IMG/VR virus record: IMGVR_UViG_3300042892_003674
Length of the DNA stretch: 64,000 nucleotides
From: a virus
Lineage: Duplodnaviria; Heunggongvirae; Uroviricota; Caudoviricetes
Strand: one strand, 5' to 3'
Within the stretch, counting starts at the first letter, position 1; every line of letters begins with the position of its first letter. Positions 55,378 to 64,000 of the stretch are shown one piece after another. The translations under genes and the position numbers were made by a program. The notes under the pieces are model-generated. The model did no database searches. It was not told the origin of the DNA and was given only the letters and a program-made list of their open reading frames with translations.

Positions 55378-56133
55378 TTATAGTATATCACTAAAGTCTA
55401 AGTTAGTGTATAGTTTATCAGTTTTCTTACCATTCTCAATGTAGTAGTACTTACCATCTTTTACGTAAAGTGAGAATTTAAGATATTTTTTCAATTCATT
55501 AAATCCAATTTGTCCTTCTGTTAGGTTAGACTTGTGTTGTCCAGATAAAACAATTTTACCCGCATCATTTAATTGTTTGATAAAGGCTTTCTTGGTCTTA
55601 TCAGTTTTTTTAATTACTGTTGGATGGAAAACTGTATTTGGAACATTATAAATACTTATACCGTCTTTATAAACTAACACACCAACCATTGAGTCAAACT
55701 CACTAGGTTTAATTTGCTGAAAGCTTGTGTTAGAAAGACAAGTTTGTTTTTCAAATATAGACATTGCTCTTTGTACAGGATACTTATCTTTATCTTTACT
55801 AGACATTACTCTAATAGATTTAATTTCACCTTTCTTACCATCATATAAGAAGTCATAGTTCTCACTTGTTACACGAGTAACTCCGTTTACCATATCAACA
55901 AACTTTTTCTCAATAAGTTCTCCAGATTGAGTATTTTTAAGATAAATGTCAACGTGTGGAAATGAATCTCCACCATACATTCTTTTTAAAACAGTTAAGA
56001 AAGTTTTTCTTTCTTCATCAGTTGTTAAATGGTCGTTTTTTAAGTCTGTTAGTAAACTAGCAAACACTGAAAAGTCAACCTTTGAAAGTTCGTCTGATGT
56101 AATTGTATCTATGTTTATGTCTTTAAGTTCCAT
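55378..56133 (-). CDS. putative PD-(D/E)xK restriction endonuclease
   Basis: GELIE...YDFLYDGKKGEIKS; FQQIKP; convergent with the MTase. Confidence 0.5.
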   Translation of the reverse strand: MELKDINIDTITSDELSKVDFSVFASLLTDLKNDHLTTDEERKTFLTVLKRMYGGDSFPHVDIYLKNTQSGELIEKKFVDMVNGVTRVTSENYDFLYDGKKGEIKSIRVMSSKDKDKYPVQRAMSIFEKQTCLSNTSFQQIKPSEFDSMVGVLVYKDGISIYNVPNTVFHPTVIKKTDKTKKAFIKQLNDAGKIVLSGQHKSNLTEGQIGFNELKKYLKFSLYVKDGKYYYIENGKKTDKLYTNLDFSDIL

Positions 56134-56206
56134 GTTTTTTATTTATTTTTATTAAGCAAATATACAACATATATTTACATTTTCCTAGTAAAGGTTGATT
56201 TATTTT

Positions 56207-56443
56207 TTATTTACAATGATCGTGTTCACATTTTTTATGTTTACACTTATACGAAGTAATAATAAGAGGTATAAGACAACAAAATATATGAAACTTAAAT
56301 CCATATGCAATTATGAACCCAAGCCAACCAAACCAACTAAAATCAAGTTTATGAAGGTCTATATTAAATATGTGTGATATAGCATGTTCTAATAAGTAGA
56401 ATGCTATAAATGATACGATAAATGTGATTATAAATTTCTTCAT
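56207..56443 (-). CDS. small membrane protein with Cys/His-rich tail
   Basis: Two hydrophobic segments; CKHKKCEHDHC. Confidence 0.65.
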   Translation of the reverse strand: MKKFIITFIVSFIAFYLLEHAISHIFNIDLHKLDFSWFGWLGFIIAYGFKFHIFCCLIPLIITSYKCKHKKCEHDHCK

Positions 56444-57048
56444 TATTTAACTAAAATATGTTTTGACCAGAACTCAACTGATTCATTATAAACTTTTTTG
56501 TTTAATTTTTCTCCGTTACCACCCTCTTCAACACCTAAAGCATTTCTCATAATAGTGATCGGTACAAGTGGATCAGGGTGTGGAAGAACCGTACCCATAA
56601 TCGAAACAATTCCCCATTCAACATTATCATCAAAGTAAAACTCTTGTCCTTCTTCTTTTGGTTTAAATTCCTTTTGAAGTTGCTCTTTTGAATAAAGAAC
56701 TAAAACAATATAGTTTGCTTCCTGTGATTTGAATCCAGGTGGTAGTTGAACATATCTAGTTAGAATTGCCAACTCTTCTGGGGTTCTTTGTGAATAGTCT
56801 GTTCTAATATAAGGGTAAATGTCTAATGTAATTGGTCTAACTGCACATTTTACACCAAACTCATTTGGTAAAACCAAGTACTTACAAAAACTCCACTCAG
56901 AATCTAACATAGTTTCTGTTGAAGCATAATCATAAGCATCATTTATTACTTCTAATAGTTCGTCTTTAACTTCGGGATCAACTTTAGTTCCAGAGAAATT
57001 CTGTGAGAATTGTCTGGTTACAAAAGGATCATATTCAATTTTCTTCAT
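56443..57048 (-). CDS. DUF3228-like protein
   Basis: RTPEELAILTR, LYSKEQL, WGIVSI, PITIMRNALGVEEGG. Confidence 0.75.
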   Translation of the reverse strand: MKKIEYDPFVTRQFSQNFSGTKVDPEVKDELLEVINDAYDYASTETMLDSEWSFCKYLVLPNEFGVKCAVRPITLDIYPYIRTDYSQRTPEELAILTRYVQLPPGFKSQEANYIVLVLYSKEQLQKEFKPKEEGQEFYFDDNVEWGIVSIMGTVLPHPDPLVPITIMRNALGVEEGGNGEKLNKKVYNESVEFWSKHILVK

Positions 57049-57120
57049 TTTTATCTTAATTTAATTTTTATCAATGTTTCCAAAAACATGTAACATCATG
57101 ATATATAATATAAACTTATA

Positions 57121-57627
57121 CTATATCCCAAGTAATTGTTTTAATTTCTTCTCTCTTAATAAGGCAGTAACCAATCTTGGCTCATGTTCAATAATGAAAT
57201 TCATTATTTCTGTCAATATGTCACAATTTTCTACAATATCTCTACATCCTCTTGAGTTCCAAAGATACCAACATTCATCTGTATGCCAATCAATAGGTTT
57301 ATCTTCATCTGAACCATAATTTCTAAAGCTCCATTCAAATTTTTTATAGCTTTTTTGTTCGTCACGCCAACCAGAATACCACTCTAAACCAACTTCGGTT
57401 ACTAACTCTTCGTCATTATACCAAACAAGTTTTATATTGATGTCAGTGTGATTATTTCCTTTTGGTTTGTCTTTATAAACTAAAGTAAAATTACTTTGAT
57501 GTCCAAACTGTCTGTTTTCATATCTTTCATATATGTCAAAATACTGTTTAACAAAATCTTTTATTTGTTCAACAGTACAACAATCTTGACGTTGTTTAAT
57601 TCTTCGAGGTGTATCAATCAATTTCAT
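57121..57627 (-). CDS. hypothetical protein with C-terminal REKKLKQLL motif
   Basis: 168 aa ORF. Confidence 0.7.
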   Translation of the reverse strand: MKLIDTPRRIKQRQDCCTVEQIKDFVKQYFDIYERYENRQFGHQSNFTLVYKDKPKGNNHTDINIKLVWYNDEELVTEVGLEWYSGWRDEQKSYKKFEWSFRNYGSDEDKPIDWHTDECWYLWNSRGCRDIVENCDILTEIMNFIIEHEPRLVTALLREKKLKQLLGI

Positions 57628-57877
57628 TTACTTCTTTTAATAGTTGACGAACTTTCATAAATCTTTTAGGTGTTTTAATCCAAAGACCATATAAATCAAC
57701 GAATAAGGCTGGACCTTTTTTGCCATCAACTGGTTCTTTTCTAAGAATATCACAGTTACCTCTATGATTAGATTTTAGAACTTCTACTTCATAGGGTCTT
57801 TCTATTGAACTCATATAAAAAAAACGAACCTCGGTTTTATTGAGACCTAAAGTTCTTAGTACGTCAGTTAAATCCAT
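57614..57877 (-). CDS. hypothetical protein, tandem paralog A
   Basis: Shares EV.SN..G.C.I.R and WIKTP.RF with the next ORF. Confidence 0.7.
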   Translation of the reverse strand: MDLTDVLRTLGLNKTEVRFFYMSSIERPYEVEVLKSNHRGNCDILRKEPVDGKKGPALFVDLYGLWIKTPKRFMKVRQLLKEVNEID

Positions 57878-57878
57878 A

Positions 57879-58142
57879 TTATTTTTCTAATTCTTTTAAC
57901 CAAACACCAATTTGTACAAATCTTGTAGGTGTTTTGATCCATATTGTGTTTATTGTAGTAAAAAATCCAGCATAATCAATCCTTTCATTTATTTGAGTTA
58001 GTCTAATTATCTCACATTCGCCATTCTTATTAGAATTGATGATTTCTATTTCAACAGGTTTTTCATCAGTAGTATTCTTATAAAAATAAGAAACACCTGA
58101 TTTATCTAAATCTACTTTTTTAAGGAAGTCTTTTATAAACAT
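57879..58142 (-). CDS. hypothetical protein, tandem paralog B
   Basis: WIKTPTRF; TActTTTG box upstream. Confidence 0.7.
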   Translation of the reverse strand: MFIKDFLKKVDLDKSGVSYFYKNTTDEKPVEIEIINSNKNGECEIIRLTQINERIDYAGFFTTINTIWIKTPTRFVQIGVWLKELEK

Positions 58143-58188
58143 AACTTTATTTTTTACAAAAGTAAGTAAAAAAATTAGTATTTACAAA

Positions 58189-58956
58189 TTATATTAAATC
58201 TAAATCTATACCGTGAGTGTCCCACCACCATTCTTTAGATTTATCTTGGTGTTTATCTTTCAATCTTTCCCACTTCAATAAAATTCTTTCCTGCCTTTCG
58301 ACTTCATCATAATAAAATTGATGATCTATTATAATATTTTCTTTATGACATAACCTTAATAATTTCTTTAATATGTAACCTTGTTTATTATTACCCGGTA
58401 CAAAACCACTGTCAATTATCTTTTTAATCGTTTCTACCAACGTTTCTTGTTTCGACTTAGTAGTTTTATTCAAAATCATTTCTAATCGTTCTAAACCAAA
58501 CCCAACGTCAATACAAGTGCCTAATGGATTCACTATGTTTCCAATTTCAATACCATCTTTGTAAAATTCAGTACAATATCCACCTATATCACCATCAGAC
58601 CAAATACACTCTTCGTCAAATCTAACTTCTATATCTGTATAGAATTCTGACCATTCTGGTTTATCTGGATGTATAGTAACATAATCAGGTGTTATACCTA
58701 TTATCTTTAAAAAATCTAACCAATAATTTATTGTTTGTGGTACAGTCCATTCTCTGAAAGAGAAGAACCCTATCATATTGAAATAAAGTAAATGAGTCCC
58801 ATCACCTATTTCATCTATATCATTTAATCTTAAACAAGATTGTATGTTTGATATAGTTCCTTTGTAGTTTAAGTCTTTGAATTTAGACTTGTGTTGTTGC
58901 ATTCCTGCTGGACAGAATAATGTAGTTTCGTCATAAGACCTAACATTATCATCCAT
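58189..58956 (-). CDS. alaS: truncated alanyl-tRNA synthetase (catalytic core only)
   Basis: AGMQQ.K, QSCLR..DIDEIG...H...F.M.G.FSF, IDVGFGLERL; no editing or C-Ala domains. Confidence 0.8.
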   Translation of the reverse strand: MDDNVRSYDETTLFCPAGMQQHKSKFKDLNYKGTISNIQSCLRLNDIDEIGDGTHLLYFNMIGFFSFREWTVPQTINYWLDFLKIIGITPDYVTIHPDKPEWSEFYTDIEVRFDEECIWSDGDIGGYCTEFYKDGIEIGNIVNPLGTCIDVGFGLERLEMILNKTTKSKQETLVETIKKIIDSGFVPGNNKQGYILKKLLRLCHKENIIIDHQFYYDEVERQERILLKWERLKDKHQDKSKEWWWDTHGIDLDLI

Positions 58957-59061
58957 TTTAAATTCTATCTTTTTAACGTCACAGTAAGATTTGTATTCTT
59001 CTGTGACTAAAGTGCGTCCAGCGACTGTTCTTTAGTTTTCATATTTATTTTTTATTTTTAG

Positions 59062-59120
59062 TAGGGATAGAGGGAATCGAACCCCCAAAAATCCTGCTCT
59101 TCCAATTGAGCTATATCCCA
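59062..59120 (-). ncRNA. tRNA-like RNA lacking the anticodon arm
   Basis: Acceptor, D-arm GCTC-AATTGGAA-GAGC, 9-nt linker, T-arm GGGGG-TTCGATT-CCCTC. Confidence 0.7.
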
Positions 59121-59126
59121 AAGTTT

Positions 59127-59348
59127 TTAACAGTCACCATTACAGTACATTCTACGTTCACAATCGTAGTAACCCATTTCACAAGTGAAAACTCTACCTT
59201 TTTGTTTTTTACGACCCCAAGATATTAAAGTTTTATCATGTGACCAAGCTGTCTGTAAGTAACTTTTATCTTTTTCAACTCTTTTCGACTTACGACGAAA
59301 AGCTCTTTCTTGTTTCAATTTTACTTTTTCTTCTTTCGTCATAATCAT
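59127..59348 (-). CDS. small basic Cys-containing protein inside array 4
   Basis: MIMTKEEKVKLKQERAFRRK...CEMGYYDCERRMYCNGDC; start reset. Confidence 0.6.
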   Translation of the reverse strand: MIMTKEEKVKLKQERAFRRKSKRVEKDKSYLQTAWSHDKTLISWGRKKQKGRVFTCEMGYYDCERRMYCNGDC

Positions 59349-59357
59349 AAGTATTAG

Positions 59358-59429
59358 TGGATATGATGGGAGTCGAACCCACAATCATCCGAATTAGACC
59401 AATTCTTGCATTACTCGGTACTCATACCC
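59358..59429 (-). ncRNA. D-armless tRNA-like RNA with G3-U70/A73 alanine identity
   Basis: GGGTATG/CATATCC-A; T-arm GTGGG-TTCGACT-CCCAT; no cloverleaf centre. Confidence 0.65.
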
Positions 59430-59438
59430 AAAATTTTG

Positions 59439-59513
59439 TGGAGCCAGTGGAAATCGAACCCACCACAGTCTGGTTGCAAACCAAACTCGCCTAGCCTTGG
59501 AACATGTGACCCC
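59439..59513 (-). tRNA. tRNA-Ala(UGC)
   Basis: Loop TT-TGC-AA; G3-U70. Confidence 0.8.
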
Positions 59514-59523
59514 AAAATTGTTG

Positions 59524-59597
59524 TGGAGAATACCGGAGTCGAACCGGTGGCCTCTTGCGTGCAAGGCAAGCGCTCTAGCCATCTGAGCTAATCCCCC
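59524..59597 (-). tRNA. tRNA-Ala(UGC)
   Basis: Loop CT-TGC-AC; G3-U70. Confidence 0.93.
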
Positions 59598-59603
59598 AAA
59601 AAT

Positions 59604-59747
59604 AAGATAGAGAAAGTTTATTAAACGTGTTTTTACTGTGCTACCATTACACTATATCCGCATTTTAAATTATTTGTGCGGACAATAGGATTCGAACCTA
59701 TAATAGTCGTTTGAATACGAAGTAACGCTTTATATTACTACTATCTT
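59604..59747 (-). ncRNA. circularly permuted tRNA-like RNA
   Basis: T-arm plus TGTCCGC-A precede GCGGATA plus D-arm; ends pair (AAGATAG/CTATCTT). Confidence 0.75.
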
Positions 59748-59826
59748 TATAATTAAAGTGGTGTATAAAAATTTACATCTAACGTCTTAGATATAGAGAT
59801 TTCTACAACTTAAACCACTTCTACTG

Positions 59827-59898
59827 AGCGAATGACCGGGGTCGAACCGGCGGCCTTCTACTTGGCAAGCAGAAGCTCTACCACTGAGCTACATTCGC
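59827..59898 (-). tRNA. tRNA-Gly(GCC)
   Basis: Loop TT-GCC-AA. Confidence 0.92.
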
Positions 59899-59946
59899 AT
59901 TATTGGAGCCGGACCCTGGGACTAACAGGGAGTCCTCCGGCATGTG

Positions 59947-60019
59947 AGCAAAAGACGAGATTCGAACTCGCGACAACCTGCTTGGAAGGCAGGAGCTCTA
60001 CCAACTGAGCTACTTTTGC
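59947..60019 (-). tRNA. tRNA-Gly(UCC)
   Basis: Loop CT-TCC-AA. Confidence 0.92.
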
Positions 60020-60082
60020 ATGGCATCCCGTTACTCGTGCACGAGCCATGGCATTACGGGACCGATGTTATTCCATATTCTG

Positions 60083-60156
60083 TGCGGGAGAAGGGAATCG
60101 AACCCTCGTCTCTGACTTGGAAGGCCAGCATAATCGAGCCATTATACGACTCCCGC
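60083..60156 (-). tRNA. tRNA-Gly(UCC)
   Basis: Loop CT-TCC-AA; discriminator A. Confidence 0.88.
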
Positions 60157-60162
60157 GATTTG

Positions 60163-60236
60163 TTGGTAAGGTGGGTATCGAACCCACTATCTTTTGTGTA
60201 TAAGACAAATGCTTTTACCGTCTAAGCTACTTACCA
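60163..60236 (-). tRNA. tRNA-Ile(UAU)
   Basis: Stem TTTGT/ACAAA, loop CT-TAT-AC. Confidence 0.85.
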
Positions 60237-60245
60237 ATAATTTAG

Positions 60246-60317
60246 TAGTCCATAGGGGAATCGAACCCCTCTTTCCAGGATGAAAACCTGACGACCTAAC
60301 CGATAGTCGAATGGACC
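60246..60317 (-). tRNA. tRNA-Glu(UUC)
   Basis: Loop TT-TTC-AT. Confidence 0.92.
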
Positions 60318-60325
60318 AAATTTTG

Positions 60326-60399
60326 TACTCTTGACGGGAATCGAACCCGCATTTACATCAGCTTGAGAAGCTGGAGTCCTACCGTTAGACGACAAGAGC
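60326..60399 (-). tRNA. tRNA-Glu(CUC)
   Basis: Loop TT-CTC-AA. Confidence 0.82.
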
Positions 60400-60406
60400 A
60401 TTTTGG

Positions 60407-60474
60407 TGGGATGCGAGAGACTCGAACTCTCCTGCTAGGGTTTTACAGACCCGGCTATCACCATAATCCATCCC
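60407..60474 (-). tRNA. tRNA-Tyr(GUA), compact (short D-arm, no long variable arm)
   Basis: Loop CT-GTA-AA; 68 nt. Confidence 0.7.
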
Positions 60475-60488
60475 GATTATGTTTTTTG

Positions 60489-60561
60489 TAGTGTATGTCG
60501 GATTCGAACCGACGTCCTCCGCTTTGAAAAAGCGTAATCCTTACCGCTAGACGAATACACC
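60489..60561 (-). tRNA. tRNA-Glu(UUC)
   Basis: Loop TT-TTC-AA. Confidence 0.85.
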
Positions 60562-60642
60562 ATATTCTAAAAAGTGACCACGTTAGACTATTTCGGTTGG
60601 TTTTTCAAGTCTTTCGACCCGCACATAGTCACTTTTGTTTTG

Positions 60643-60725
60643 TGGGTAGAGAGGGATTCGAACCCCCGAACTCGAATGAGAACAGATTTACAGTCTGCCA
60701 GCTTTAACCACTTGCATATCTACCC
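60643..60725 (-). tRNA. tRNA-Tyr(GUA)
   Basis: Loop CT-GTA-AA; long variable arm. Confidence 0.92.
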
Positions 60726-60733
60726 GTATTTTG

Positions 60734-60805
60734 TACTAGTGACGGGACTCGAACCCGCATCTTCCGGTTTGAAAAACCAGCTTCCTGCCATTAGAAGACA
60801 CTAGC
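60734..60805 (-). tRNA. tRNA-Glu(UUC)
   Basis: Loop TT-TTC-AA. Confidence 0.85.
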
Positions 60806-60827
60806 ATATTTTTTAATTTTAATCAAT

Positions 60828-60868
60828 AAAAAAACCCAATCTGATTTTTACGTCAGATTGGGTTTTTT
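60828..60868 (-). terminator. attenuator terminator, tRNA array 4
   Basis: AAAAAACCCAATCTGA-CGTAAAAA-TCAGATTGGGTTTTTTT. Confidence 0.9.
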
Positions 60869-60891
60869 GTATAATAATGTTCTTTAACTCA

Positions 60892-60993
60892 TTACTTTAT
60901 ACACATAACGCTTCTGACCGATGGTATTGTATACCCCGCTTCATACCCGCCTATGGCTTCGATAGCTATTGTTATGTTAGTAATTGTTGTCAT
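60892..60993 (-). CDS. leader peptide 4 (MTTITNITIAIEAIGGYEAGYTIPSVRSVMCIK)
   Basis: Residues 9-21 are only I/A/E/G/Y; 5 ATA codons match tRNA-Ile(UAU). Confidence 0.9.
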   Translation of the reverse strand: MTTITNITIAIEAIGGYEAGYTIPSVRSVMCIK

Positions 60994-61031
60994 TTTTTCT
61001 ATTTTTTAAATTGTTGTTTTTAATTCTTCTA

Positions 61032-61039
61032 CAAAGATA
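61032..61039 (-). promoter_or_regulatory. TAtcTTTG promoter box for array 4
   Basis: Matches the Bacteroidota -7 consensus TAnnTTTG. Confidence 0.6.
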
Positions 61040-61088
61040 CGATAAGTTTTTAAACTACCAAATCTTTTTTTAATTTTTTATTCTTTAG

Positions 61089-61161
61089 TAGCGGGAGAAG
61101 GACTCGAACCTCCGACCTTATGGTTATGAGCCACACGAGCTGCCTACTGCTCTATCCCGCG
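61089..61161 (-). tRNA. tRNA-Met(CAU), initiator-like
   Basis: Loop CT-CAT-AA; C1-U72 mismatch; CGCGGGATAGAGCAG 5' end. Confidence 0.85.
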
Positions 61162-61207
61162 ATATATTTTTTGAGACTTGTATCTAAATCGTTACCTATC
61201 TCTTTTG

Positions 61208-61278
61208 TAGCGTATCGTGGATTCGAACCACCCCGTAGACCTTATGAGAGTCTCATGCAACCTTTACACTTTAACGCG
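61208..61278 (-). tRNA. tRNA-Met(CAU), initiator-like, partly degenerate
   Basis: Loop CT-CAT-AA; C1 mismatch; imperfect acceptor stem. Confidence 0.6.
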
Positions 61279-61330
61279 ATATATGTTTATACTTCTATAT
61301 ATTAGAAAAGTTTTCTCTATTTCTCTATTT

Positions 61331-61912
61331 TTAGTAGTTTTTTTCAATTTTTTTAATAATTTCGTCAATTTCTTTCTTAGATTGTTCTAAATCTACGTTT
61401 TTTATTACAAAATCCGCTAATTTGGCTTTATCTTCATCGGACCATTGACTTCTTATTCTTTTAATGACATCTTCTTTGTTAGTATTATCTCGTTTGATAA
61501 CTCTTTCAACTCTGACATCTTCTGGTGCAGTTACTAAAATTGTAAAATCACAATCTTTATAAGCACCACTTTCAAATAAGATAGCCGCTTCTTTAACTAC
61601 AAAAGGTTTATCACATTGTTTTAACCAGTTAGTAAAGTTTTTTCTCACTTTTGGATGAACAATCTCATTTAATTGTTTGAGTTTGTTTTCATTTCCGAAT
61701 ACAAAAGTAGCTAACTTTTTCTTATCTACCAAATTATTTTTTATAATTTCTTCACCGAAGGCATTTCTTATTTCATTTACTACTTCTGGTGTATCAAGTA
61801 ACTTCTTTGCCTCATCATCTGCAATATAAACAGGATAACCTAAAGTTTCAATATACTTTGTGATTGTTGTCTTTCCAGAACCAATCCCTCCTGTTATACC
61901 TATTATTTTCAT
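61331..61912 (-). CDS. coaE: dephospho-CoA kinase
   Basis: IGITGGIGSGKTT, IADDEAK, IVHP, EAAILFE, SQW. Confidence 0.93.
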   Translation of the reverse strand: MKIIGITGGIGSGKTTITKYIETLGYPVYIADDEAKKLLDTPEVVNEIRNAFGEEIIKNNLVDKKKLATFVFGNENKLKQLNEIVHPKVRKNFTNWLKQCDKPFVVKEAAILFESGAYKDCDFTILVTAPEDVRVERVIKRDNTNKEDVIKRIRSQWSDEDKAKLADFVIKNVDLEQSKKEIDEIIKKIEKNY

Positions 61913-61969
61913 AAAACAAATGTAGTGATAATTTTTAATATATAACTTATATAAAATAATTTATTAAAG

Positions 61970-62335
61970 ATGGAAAGACCTCAAGTAAGAATGATTGAAC
62001 CTCAATCAGAAGAAACGGCACCAGCAAACATTCCAAGTTGGGAAGCAGAACAACTACTTCGTAAATACGGACATCAACCAGAACAATTTACAAGTCGTCA
62101 AGTAGATCCACCTCCAACACCACCTGGTTTAACATTTGAGGAAATGATTGCTCAACAAGAAGCAGAAGAAAGAAATAATCAAATGAGAAGACAACAACAA
62201 ATGAATGGACCACAACCAAAAACATTTGATGGTACTAGAGGATATGATTCAGAAGTTAGATATACATCAGATGATGATTCAGGATTTGGTTTCAAGATTG
62301 AGATTACAACTGATATGCAATTACCTAGATATTGA
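61970..62335 (+). CDS. hypothetical protein
   Basis: 121 aa, Q/P-rich. Confidence 0.7.
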   Translation: MERPQVRMIEPQSEETAPANIPSWEAEQLLRKYGHQPEQFTSRQVDPPPTPPGLTFEEMIAQQEAEERNNQMRRQQQMNGPQPKTFDGTRGYDSEVRYTSDDDSGFGFKIEITTDMQLPRY

Positions 62336-62551
62336 ATCTATTTTAAGATCTCTCAATATCCATTCTTGTTTATAAATTTTACAAAACTTTTTTATTTCAG
62401 TAAGAAAGTTTTCTTTGTTCCAAAAAATCCAGGTAGAATCTATGAATTGTAGAATTTCTAAATTTCTTAATTCAGTTGCCATTTCATATTCACCTATTGT
62501 AAAGAAGTGATTCTTATATTCTATTAGTTTTTCTTTGTAGTATTCTTTCAT
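62321..62551 (-). CDS. small protein: UVR-like motif plus C-terminal RDLKI motif
   Basis: GEYEMATELRNLE; ends LRDLKIDSISR. Confidence 0.65.
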   Translation of the reverse strand: MKEYYKEKLIEYKNHFFTIGEYEMATELRNLEILQFIDSTWIFWNKENFLTEIKKFCKIYKQEWILRDLKIDSISR

Positions 62552-62808
62552 TTTAATACTTCGCTTATTTTTAAGTCTCGTAAAGAACTTTTTAGATAAG
62601 ATTTGGAGTCTTCATCTATATTAGTATCTATATATCTTTGTAGTAACATTGAAAGATTTTCAATAGTTGGATTTTGTGATATTTCACCAAATTGACCTTT
62701 AAAGGTGTTCTCGATACTTCTCAATGCACTCGCAGCATCCCATAATTGAAGCTTAACTGCACCACTTTTCATTGTAATTACTAGGTCGATTATTTCTTGT
62801 TTATACAT
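62548..62808 (-). CDS. small protein: UVR-like motif plus C-terminal RDLKI motif
   Basis: KSGAVKLQLWDAASALRSIE; ends LRDLKISEVLK. Confidence 0.65.
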   Translation of the reverse strand: MYKQEIIDLVITMKSGAVKLQLWDAASALRSIENTFKGQFGEISQNPTIENLSMLLQRYIDTNIDEDSKSYLKSSLRDLKISEVLK

Positions 62809-63307
62809 TTAGTATTCTATTTATCTGTGAATCTCTCAATTCTGATTTTGTTTTCTTAAACCATAAAGTTCTTTCGTATGCTTGTCTTAATTGTTTCCAA
62901 TCAGGTTTTGTGTCCCAAATTCCATAAACATACATTACATCATCCCATAGAATTAGACTTTTTAATTCAGATTTATCTTCAGCAACAAGATTAGTGTATA
63001 TCTTACCATTATAATCATATTCATATTCAACTTTATATTCCCAAGTTCTTCTAGTATCAATCCATTCAACTTCTAAAGCTTGGTCTATTATATAAGTATC
63101 TATGAAGAGTCCTAGTTTTGGATAAGTTAAACCATTTTGACCGGCTCCACCAATGACAGACTCATATAAAAAGAAATTACCTGTTTTGATTTTAGTTTGA
63201 TGTAAGTCAAATTTATTATAATGTTCTTTTTCATCTTCTTTATTTTCAAATCTAAATATCTTAGTTTTGTTTTTCTTCTCGTTTATTTGACCTTTTGTTA
63301 TAATCAT
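62801..63307 (-). CDS. hypothetical protein with C-terminal RDSQINRIL motif
   Basis: 168 aa; TAtaTTTG box upstream. Confidence 0.7.
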   Translation of the reverse strand: MIITKGQINEKKNKTKIFRFENKEDEKEHYNKFDLHQTKIKTGNFFLYESVIGGAGQNGLTYPKLGLFIDTYIIDQALEVEWIDTRRTWEYKVEYEYDYNGKIYTNLVAEDKSELKSLILWDDVMYVYGIWDTKPDWKQLRQAYERTLWFKKTKSELRDSQINRILNV

Positions 63308-63373
63308 GTTCTTTCCTTTAATTTACAAATATAAAAAATAATATATAAGATACAAAATATTTTATATAAAATT

Positions 63374-64000
63374 ATGGCATTAGTTCTTTTTGAAAGTAGA
63401 GTAAATATGATAACCGCGGCTACACCCTCAATTGGTGGATTCGTAGTTGCTTATGATACATTAGACGGAGTTTTAAAACAAAAAGATCATTTAGGTGTTA
63501 TTACACCAATTGGTTCAGGAGGTGGAATAGGTTCACTTGCACAAACACTATCTATTGGTAGTACTACTGGTACTAATTCAATATATTTAGATATAAATTC
63601 TCATGTTAGATCTAGTGGAGGTTCTGCTAGCTTAAGATTAGATAATGGTAGTTCTGGTAATTATGTAGAACTATCTTCTTCTAACTCAATAACTGGTTCT
63701 ACTTTGGCAATGAGTGATACTAATATTCTATTAAAAGGATTAAGTTCATCCTTAACAATGAATACATCATCTGTTAGTTTAATTTTTGGTGTAAATCAAT
63801 TTTTATTACAAAATAACAATTCTTATTTAAGATTAGGTTCAACAAATGTTTTAGAATTTACAACATCAACTGCAACTAGAGCAACTGGTAATAGGGTTCC
63901 GGCATTTATATCATCAAATGGTTCAAGATTTTCGAATACAGTTACTAATAGTGTTATATTAGGTGGTTCTAGTATTGTTGGTACACAATCAAACTCTGTT
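63374..64000 (+). CDS. probable tail-fibre/structural protein (3' partial, not in ORF track)
   Basis: ATG at 63374, open to window end; MALVLFESRVN...GSLAQTLSIG.TTG, S/T/G-rich. Confidence 0.65.
   Translation, partial: MALVLFESRVNMITAATPSIGGFVVAYDTLDGVLKQKDHLGVITPIGSGGGIGSLAQTLSIGSTTGTNSIYLDINSHVRSSGGSASLRLDNGSSGNYVELSSSNSITGSTLAMSDTNILLKGLSSSLTMNTSSVSLIFGVNQFLLQNNNSYLRLGSTNVLEFTTSTATRATGNRVPAFISSNGSRFSNTVTNSVILGGSSIVGTQSNSV

Follow-up and report, generated by a model that had tools for sequence, protein, structure and literature searches.

A putative leader-peptide attenuator ahead of an array of eleven phage tRNA genes

Introduction

What decides whether a phage transcribes its own tRNA genes? 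To our knowledge, next to nothing has been established about how phage tRNA genes are regulated, and as a rule tRNA genes are regarded as constitutive or as controlled by growth rate. The question is raised by a locus on the minus strand of a 64,000-nucleotide stretch of Caudoviricetes DNA (virus record IMGVR_UViG_3300042892_003674; hereafter the window), in which eleven tRNA genes for five amino acids lie downstream of a 33-codon open reading frame (ORF) and an intrinsic transcriptional terminator. An earlier note on this DNA had read the arrangement as an attenuator in which a ribosome translating the short ORF controls transcription into the tRNA genes. We have examined this locus together with its relatives in other phages and metagenome contigs, and conclude that it is very likely a functional, ribosome-mediated leader-peptide attenuator that gates the phage tRNA array. 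This reading is carried by the selection acting on orthologous leaders, by the way in which leaders track their arrays and by covariation between leaders and terminators; the emphasis that the earlier note had placed on ATA codons, and the 6-bp pairing that it had pointed out, do not sustain it when taken alone. We infer from sequence that the leader ORF is translated, in which direction the switch works and what it senses.

Results

The leader ORF carries a codon run that matches the downstream tRNA array

ARAGORN called 41 tRNA genes in the window, with which Rfam concurs; all of them are on the minus strand and the majority fall into four blocks. The layout of the block studied here is given below, and all the features listed in the earlier note are present where it had placed them.

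61062-61032, minus strand: promoter as read from the sequence, with TTTG at 61062-61059, a 19-nt spacer and TAtcTTTG at 61039-61032
about 30 nt, minus strand: 5′ untranslated region (5′-UTR), rich in A and without a Shine-Dalgarno sequence
60993-60892, minus strand: leader ORF, 33 codons plus TAA, starting about 30 nt downstream of the promoter
60969-60931, minus strand: putative sensing run, codons 9-21, IAIEAIGGYEAGY, made of Ile, Ala, Glu, Gly and Tyr codons only
23 nt, minus strand: spacer from the stop codon to the terminator stem
60868-60829, minus strand: intrinsic terminator with a 16-bp stem, an 8-nt loop and a U-run, -20.5 kcal/mol
60805-59438, minus strand: array of 11 tRNA genes (ARAGORN and Rfam)
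60162-60236, minus strand: tRNA-Ile(UAU) of the array (ARAGORN and Rfam)

The tRNA genes follow one another in the order Glu(UUC), Tyr(GUA), Glu(UUC), Glu(CUC), Glu(UUC), Ile(UAU), two Gly(UCC), Gly(GCC) and two Ala(UGC), so that the array holds four tRNAs for Glu, one for Tyr, one for Ile (UAU), three for Gly and two for Ala. The first of them, a tRNA-Glu, begins 23 nt after the terminator, and this gap is too short for the array to have a promoter of its own. The promoter upstream of the leader agrees in its layout with the Bacteroidota sigma-A type (-33/-7): a TAnnTTTG -7 box with a TTG about 19 nt upstream is what we take to be the consensus of Bacteroidetes/Flavobacterium promoters. When the minus strand was searched for TANNTTTG from 58950 to 61040, the sole match besides the promoter overlapped the 5′ end of a tRNA-Ala gene (59597-59604). 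The same promoter block stands ahead of the other three leaders of the window and ahead of the orthologues of this one. The type of promoter and the absence of a Shine-Dalgarno sequence, together with a tRNA match of 92% to Flavobacterium phages by megablast, indicate a Bacteroidota host. A sigma-70 promoter scan of the window was uninformative for this organism (34 sites versus 37 expected).

Ile, Ala, Glu, Gly and Tyr make up 17 of the 33 leader residues, at a background frequency of 0.296. As the earlier note had counted, 13 of them are consecutive (codons 9-21), and these five amino acids coincide exactly with the specificities of the tRNAs in the array. A run of at least 13 is expected by chance in about 5e-7 to 3e-6 of random 32-mers; among the 233 ATG-initiated ORFs of 20-45 codons in the window, the next-longest run of these residues is 6. 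All three Gly codons of the run are the rarest ones (GGC, 3.4%; GGG, 2.7%; joint chance 2e-4) and two of its three Ala codons are rare. Rare codons sharpen classical attenuators, as the CUA codons of the leu leader do. The match between the run and the array bears on a simple alternative, namely that the terminator acts as a fixed insulator or leaky stop and simply holds tRNA transcription at a low, constitutive level, with the ORF being a small peptide gene or an incidental frame: such a stop would leave unexplained why the run consists of the exact five amino acids of the array.

Leader composition tracks tRNA content in the window and in related phages

The other three tRNA blocks of the window are built in the same way, with a promoter box, an ORF of 29-34 codons, a gap of ~25 nt, a strong terminator and then the tRNAs, which begin ~20 nt after the terminator; in the Asp/Gln/Pro/Met block the first called tRNA lies ~100 nt away. 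Their leaders are enriched for the amino acids of their own arrays, with M/P/Q/D before Asp/Gln/Pro/Met, N/T/V/I/C before Asn/Ile/Val/Cys/Thr and L/R before Arg/Leu. A megablast search with positions 56000-64000 against GenBank phages returned tRNA-sized matches only, and one of these led to LR745206.1, an uncultured phage of 634,780 bp that has syntenic arrays, each with a leader and a terminator. Every leader was scored against the amino-acid set of every array and the assignments were permuted. The true assignment was the best of 24 permutations in the window and the best of 5040 in LR745206.1, and over 18 non-identical modules none of 200,000 permutations equalled the true pairing. This 18-module set includes orthologues that are not independent, whereas the permutation tests within a genome are valid.

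Where arrays have been split or joined, the leaders differ accordingly in their codons. LR745206.1 divides the block of the window in two: a Y/E-rich leader (run SYESYYEE) and its terminator precede Glu, Glu, Glu, Tyr, Glu and Tyr, and a second, I/G/A-rich leader (run ISIAVIGNGAGAI) and its terminator precede Ile(UAU), Gly, Met and Gly. The same genome has a leader of the Q-only kind (QQIQQQQ) before three tRNA-Gln genes, as well as four further matched pairs. Contig L068 shows the same split into a Y/E and an I/G/A leader. In contigs L119 and L120 the arrays are fused, and the leaders use the same alphabet in a different order (IEAIGYAYEAG and VIGAYEAGYAYEG). Contig L119 (IMGVR_UViG_3300009181_004073) is a perfect palindrome with two inverted copies of the leader, the array and a gene similar to alanyl-tRNA synthetase (AlaRS), and is probably an assembly artefact.

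The beginning of the leader served to find further modules. A 15-mer pattern was too unspecific (115 loci, mostly chance) and was replaced by a 21-mer, which located the conserved leader start at 8 viral and 58 metagenome loci. At many of these the first seven codons are unchanged and another run follows, with an array to match: AYYYEGE before Tyr/Glu, ERREREE before Glu/Arg(UCU), L/V/C before Cys/Val/Leu and S/R before Arg/Ser. The backbone of the window leader (GUCAGA, a ...VM.. tail and a CCCA.TCTGAC terminator) is that of the Y/E type, and the run has thus apparently been rewritten to add I, A and G where arrays were joined. Such rewriting upon the splitting and fusion of arrays is again left unexplained if the terminator is only a leaky stop. 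The leader start, M-(K/T/N)-T-I-T-N-I, is also found with identical nucleotides as the N-terminus of ordinary long proteins of related phages (in L055, L146, L154, L158 and others); instead of tagging a protein, the common block may serve as a cassette for expression or initiation.

Codon meaning is conserved inside the run and nucleotides are conserved behind it

Selection on the leader was examined in 12 distinct 33-codon orthologous sequences from viral and metagenome contigs. The ORF is kept open in all 12. Within the run, the orthologues differ by at least six synonymous events and by no non-synonymous one, at codons 10, 11, 13, 16 and 18 (GCT/GCA, ATC/ATA, GCC/GCG/GCA, GGG/GGA and GAA/GAG, respectively); since synonymous changes make up 24% of the possible single changes in the run, a 6:0 outcome has p=1.9e-4. 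In the rest of the ORF there are one synonymous and at least nine non-synonymous events (run versus rest, Fisher p=8.7e-4). Codon 22, directly after the run, is T, R, K or I among the orthologues. By comparison with this drift, codons 23-30, which hold GUCAGA and the 3′ strand of the helix P1 (both described below), are invariant at the nucleotide level save for one AGA to AGT change.

A run that changes only synonymously, followed by codons that are fixed in their nucleotides, is what one would predict if the run is read by a ribosome and the sequence after it is constrained by an RNA pairing. It argues against a functional leader peptide, and a leaky stop would not explain why the run is confined to synonymous changes while the remainder of the peptide drifts. 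The invariant codons 23-30 could also be viewed as a binding site instead of just a pairing strand, in keeping with antitermination by a factor that acts on the leader RNA, either a protein of the phage or the host or an uncharged tRNA (in the manner of a T-box, PyrR or TRAP), for which the ORF would be irrelevant. Rfam, however, gave no leader, T-box or other cis-regulatory family, either for the window at gathering thresholds (tRNA models only) or for 58900-61400 at E<=1, and selection on the run follows the meaning of the codons, not their nucleotides, which points to the ribosome as the reader. We regard such a factor as very improbable.

The terminator arm pairs with a segment of its own leader

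The putative alternative structures of the leader RNA involve the following segments.

60918-60913 (nt 76-81), minus strand: antiterminator 5′ strand GUCAGA, in codons 26-27, 12 nt beyond the last sensing codon
60857-60852 (nt 137-142), minus strand: antiterminator target UCUGAC, comprising the final 5 nt of the terminator 5′ arm and the first base of the loop
60902-60869 (nt 92-125), minus strand: spacer hairpin, spanning the leader stop codon
60977-60971, minus strand: P1 5′ strand ACAUAAC, candidate region 1, with its partner GUUAUGU at 60909-60903 in the full-length minimum free energy (MFE) fold

The earlier note had proposed that GUCAGA pairs with UCUGAC. The pairing is correct, and it is present when the RNA is folded without the 3′ arm of the terminator: GUCAGA with UCUGAC, together with GUU with AAC, then extend the base of the spacer hairpin, and nt 73-146 fold with -15.5 kcal/mol. 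Taken alone, this pairing is no better than in shuffled sequences. The duplex energy of the window antiterminator was accordingly dropped as stand-alone evidence, shuffles doing as well.

In relatives, the antiterminators covary with the terminators. The fused modules pair GAGUUGG with CCAACUC (L120) and AGACUG with CAGUCU (L119); the Y/E type pairs GUCAGACU with AGUCUGAC (-13 kcal/mol), the E/R type uses GUUCGGAU or AAUCGGAU, each with a matching arm, and in the L/V/C type the pairing reaches -17 to -18 kcal/mol. We permuted leaders and terminator arms among 12 modules with clearly different terminators. The energies of each leader with its own arm summed to -148 kcal/mol, versus -100 +/- 8 for the permuted pairs, and none of 100,000 permutations was as good. 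The support for the antiterminator in these sequences comes from this covariation across paralogous modules and not from the window copy alone. That each terminator 5′ arm is complementary to a segment in its own leader is a further regularity for which a leaky stop has no explanation.

When the whole leader is folded, the structure has -42.5 kcal/mol (z=-5.5). In it, the terminator forms at nt 126-165, and nt 17-58 pair imperfectly, over a long range, with nt 73-91, P1 being the outer helix of this pairing. In relatives P1 takes the forms ACAUAG with CUAUGU and ACAUAGA with UCUAUGU; it shows a compensatory exchange of A-U for G-C between the window type and the Y/E type, and a second one is seen in L068. 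The inner pairs are not conserved, and P1 is not part of the MFE structure before the 3′ arm has been made. The role of P1 as the 1:2 helix of an attenuator is suggestive.

The position of the ribosome relative to these segments was considered next to the folds. A ribosome with its A site in codons 9-21 would reach at most about nt 73 and leave GUCAGA free, and mask folding indicates that the GUCAGA pairing is lost once the A site is at codon 23 or later. Apart from a convincing 1:2 helix, the module has the structural parts of a leader attenuator: a short ORF, matching regulatory codons, an intrinsic terminator and a mutually exclusive antiterminator that is free under a stalled ribosome.

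Several observations weigh against this reading. The window antiterminator is short, with 6 bp and a 3-bp extension, and its duplex energy is not better than that of shuffled sequence (176/300 shuffles). Its own energy (-9.0) is the weakest of the 12 module types, and its leader takes only 7th place among the 12 when ranked against its own arm. The weak 1:2 helix is conserved in part only. Equilibrium folds show no switch: the terminator always wins once its 3′ arm is present, and before that the antiterminator is the MFE structure whether or not a ribosome mask is applied, except when the mask extends over GUCAGA itself. The attenuator model thus rests on kinetics and sterics, because equilibrium folding fails to separate the stalled from the unstalled state. 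The match of codons to anticodons beyond the amino-acid level is modest in this leader (12/15 versus 10.9 expected) and a small excess over all modules (264/307 versus 241.8 expected). Finally, the model assumes that transcription and translation are efficiently coupled in Bacteroidota.

Two alternatives draw on these same observations. The fact that the window antiterminator alone is statistically indistinct from chance, and that folding shows no clear switch, would suit a leaky stop; set against the composition of the run, its synonymous-only evolution, the rewritten leaders and the matched arms, we judge a leaky stop to be quite improbable. The direction of the switch, which equilibrium folds do not fix, could also be the reverse, so that smooth translation of the leader leads to readthrough and stalling to termination, and tRNAs are made when translation is healthy. 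The stop codon, however, lies 23 nt before the terminator stem here, mostly 17-33 nt in relatives and at least 17 nt in all of them, and the reversed logic is disfavoured because a terminating ribosome is too far from the stem to melt it. Moreover, the strand that can pair with the terminator follows closely on the 3′ side of the run, where it is free under a stalled ribosome and covered by a passing one. We therefore hold the reversed direction to be very improbable and keep to an attenuator in which stalling in the run favours readthrough.

A possible preference for ATA codons in units with tRNA-Ile(UAU)

The earlier note had stressed that five of the seven Ile codons of the leader are ATA, the codon read by the tRNA-Ile(UAU) of the array. 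The count is right (ATT at codon 4, ATA at 7, ATA at 9, ATC at 11, and ATA at 14, 23 and 32), but the leader alone does not bear out the emphasis: ATA already accounts for 45.9% of the Ile codons in the long ORFs of the window, and its excess in the leader is therefore not significant (p=0.16). When the units with Ile(UAU) were pooled over lineages, 8 of the 10 Ile codons in the runs were ATA and none was ATT (binomial p=0.03; absence of ATT, p=0.003), whereas in the window's Ile(GAU) unit ATT occurs three times and ATA in 0/3 (Fisher p=0.035 against the Ile(UAU) units); these pooled statistics rest on few, related and non-independent lineages. One haplotype of the window type has ATA in place of ATC at codon 11. 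A preference for ATA in Ile(UAU) units is thus suggestive. As tRNA-Ile(UAU) does not need TilS, a depletion of tilS would act solely via the host's own ATA decoder.

An AlaRS-like gene probably belongs to the same transcription unit

Downstream of the array lies a gene that the earlier note had taken for a truncated AlaRS, probably co-regulated with the tRNAs.

58956-58189, minus strand: AlaRS-core ORF ("mini-AlaRS"), 255 amino acids (aa), Pfam tRNA-synt_2c PF01411

The Pfam match (1.5e-18, 67 bits) covers profile positions 27-201 of 552. In an alignment with AlaRS chains of the PDB, the core motifs of class II are kept (motif-2-like and GxGxER-like segments) with internal deletions, and no part of the protein extends past the equivalent of about residue 320 of bacterial AlaRS. 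By its sequence, the 255-aa protein is a homologue of the AlaRS catalytic core with the class-II motifs present.

Regarding its co-regulation, the observation that no terminator separates the array from this gene holds, as two scans gave no minus-strand terminator from 60828 to 55379, the next one being at 55379-55344. Between the attenuator and the AlaRS-like gene there is no good promoter motif besides the -7-box match that overlaps the tRNA-Ala 5′ end. The gene stays in the unit of an Ala-containing leader in four other lineages (L119, L120, L002 and L068), in three of which (L119, L120 and L068) it directly follows a tRNA-Ala; in LR745206.1 it lies inside the I/G/A-leader unit and not in the Y/E one, with no terminator between. 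Its co-regulation is supported by the missing terminator and promoter and by the preserved synteny, a support that is indirect. Co-regulation is plausible and agrees with the evolutionary pattern, and the gene is probably in the same transcription unit as the array.

The presence of this gene raises the alternative that the same architecture senses amino-acid supply or aminoacylation, as the trp, his and pheST leaders do, with the AlaRS-like enzyme as the useful product and the tRNAs as passengers. It is established for attenuation that a stalled ribosome cannot distinguish a missing tRNA from an uncharged one, and the conserved linkage of an AlaRS-core gene to an Ala-containing leader parallels E. 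coli pheST. On the other hand, a synthetase is present for only one of the five sensed amino acids, and the other three units of the window and most relatives hold tRNAs only. Leader composition tracks tRNA content through the splits and fusions, which would be difficult to account for if something other than the tRNAs were the regulated product. We consider the sensing of amino-acid supply rather unlikely.

Several neighbouring elements lie within or next to the presumed unit. Both phage tRNA-Ala genes carry G3:U70. The second, tRNA-Ala(UGC) at 59439-59511 (minus strand), reaches only 22 bits in Rfam and has an aberrant D-arm, with G3:U70 kept, and it could be a substrate for an AlaRS that reads the acceptor stem alone. 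A small basic, Cys-rich ORF (59127-59384, minus strand; ~70-85 aa, no Pfam match) lies within the presumed unit, between this tRNA-Ala and a 59-nt tRNA-like gene without an anticodon arm (59062-59120, minus strand; Rfam tRNA, 41.8 bits). The latter is directly upstream of the AlaRS-like gene, and its acceptor stem has G3:C70, that is, it lacks the Ala identity pair. Directly 3′ of the AlaRS-like gene are two tandem 87-aa paralogues without a Pfam match (57614-57877 and 57879-58142, minus strand), and after these comes a DUF3228 protein (56443-57048, minus strand); all of them precede the terminator at 55379-55344.

Further tRNA genes and tRNA-like elements around the attenuator

61161-61088, minus strand: tRNA-Met(CAU), a short way upstream of the promoter (ARAGORN and Rfam)

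This tRNA-Met(CAU) marks the 5′ boundary of the regulated unit and is outside both it and the attenuator. It has a C1 x U72 mismatch and is initiator-like. A tRNA-Met occupies the equivalent place before the module in the five related contigs that were checked (L001, L018, L068, L099 and L105), and the copy in L001 shows the same C1 x U72 mismatch. An initiator tRNA is not sensed by stalling during elongation, which may be a reason for its place outside the attenuator. A further, weak tRNA-like element (61208-61278, minus strand; Rfam, 22.8 bits) has a CAU loop.

Within the array, an unannotated tRNA-Tyr-like element is found at 60407-60474 on the minus strand (6085-6160 in L001), with a GUA anticodon loop, an encoded CCA, an odd D-arm and 22 bits in Rfam. 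It overlaps the sole stretch of the 8-kb query that megablast matched in LR745206.1 (81% identity), where it is the first element past the Y/E terminator. The 80-nt spacer between tRNA-Tyr and tRNA-Glu (60562-60641, minus strand) is closed by an inverted repeat, AAAGUGAC...GUCACUUU, with U residues after it. This spacer might form a weak terminator inside the array or encode a small RNA with a structure of its own, and was not called in the terminator scans. At 59637-59698 (minus strand), tRNA halves occur in permuted order: a T-arm and 3′ acceptor strand (59698-59677), 15 nt, and then a 5′ acceptor strand and D-arm (59661-59637). The acceptor strands are complementary (GCGGAUA x UGUCCGC), and neither ARAGORN nor Rfam called the element, which could be a circularly permuted tRNA gene or the relics of two decayed copies.

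Discussion

We propose that the locus works as follows. Transcription would begin at the promoter at 61062-61032 and a ribosome would translate the 33-codon leader. When the Ile, Ala, Glu, Gly and Tyr codons are decoded fast, the ribosome would cover GUCAGA and park at the UAA in the 5′ arm of the spacer hairpin, where it would remove the scaffold that brings GUCAGA beside UCUGAC. In this unstalled state the 16-bp terminator would form, and transcription would stop 23 nt ahead of the first tRNA. When any of the five amino acids lacks sufficient usable tRNA, the ribosome would stall in codons 9-21, its footprint ending just before GUCAGA. GUCAGA would then pair with UCUGAC in the upper part of the terminator 5′ arm. 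This helix, stacking on the spacer hairpin, would delay the nucleation of the terminator, and RNA polymerase would read through into the eleven tRNA genes and probably into the AlaRS-like gene too. The products would relieve the stall, providing negative feedback on decoding capacity. A pairing this short could suffice, in that it would block the loop-proximal nucleation pairs while the polymerase is on the U-run.

What these leaders gauge may be the usable pool of tRNA, from host and phage together, and not the supply of amino acids, each cassette thus being a closed-loop tRNA homeostat for one group of codons; we put this forward tentatively, as a possibility close to evenly balanced. If it is true, a huge phage would replace just those tRNAs that become limiting during infection, for instance through host shut-off, codon-usage mismatch or host anticodon nucleases, and a minimal AlaRS would be tied to the same sensor.

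The element can be compared with known systems. With the leaders of ilvGMEDA (Ile/Leu/Val), thr (Thr/Ile), trp, his, leu and phe it shares a short promoter-proximal ORF and, as in ilv and thr, a run of codons for several amino acids. As in these enterobacterial attenuators, the terminator 5′ arm can alternatively pair with a segment just 3′ of the run, the stop codon precedes the terminator, and rare codons occur in the run, as the CUA codons do in the leu leader. It differs from them in that it would control tRNA genes and not biosynthetic enzymes, so that the loop closes on decoding capacity, that it would sense five amino acids, and that it is phage-borne and paralogous, with one cassette per tRNA block. 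Its antiterminator is also much shorter and its 1:2 helix weak, and none of the leader families in Rfam matches it. Biosynthetic or synthetase genes, which make up the classical regulon, do not open this unit: it begins with 11 tRNA genes, the AlaRS-core gene being distal.

The E. coli pheST attenuator, with its pheM leader, resembles the locus in having a synthetase gene behind a leader that contains codons for its own amino acid (in the phage, Ala and the AlaRS core). In the phage, by contrast, the synthetase homologue comes last in a unit dominated by tRNAs, comprises the catalytic core only (255 aa) and is presumed from the layout to be co-transcribed. T-box riboswitches likewise sense the state of tRNA and place a terminator and an antiterminator ahead of translation-related genes. 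They differ in that the RNA itself binds uncharged tRNA, by means of a specifier codon and the T-box sequence, with no need of a ribosome, whereas the phage leader has no T-box match and is under selection on its codons. A virus-encoded AlaRS shorter than the cellular enzyme is also known from Tupanvirus, whose mini-AlaRS keeps the whole aminoacylation domain, that is, the catalytic and tRNA-recognition parts (PMC10036535). The phage protein, with 255 aa, aligns to the catalytic core only and has internal deletions; as only this core is present, it is smaller than the Tupanvirus mini-AlaRS (PMC10036535).

We found no description of leader-peptide control or attenuation of tRNA genes in the open literature and bioRxiv, subscription journals lying outside the scope of the search. 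What would be new here is the application of a classical attenuation device to tRNA genes, in the form of a phage-borne family of paralogous cassettes. If the proposal is true, how fast the ribosome moves through a set of codons would determine whether the tRNAs that read them are made, which is a direct feedback on decoding capacity. The natural variants, which would sense from one to five amino acids and occur in fused and split forms, constitute a ready test system, and these modules might serve synthetic biology as compact, programmable sensors that are specific for codons. Control of this kind would also offer an explanation for the grouping of tRNAs by amino acid in huge phages, and would make testable the debate on what phage tRNAs are for, be it compensation for codon usage, replacement of degraded host tRNAs or evasion of defences that target tRNAs.

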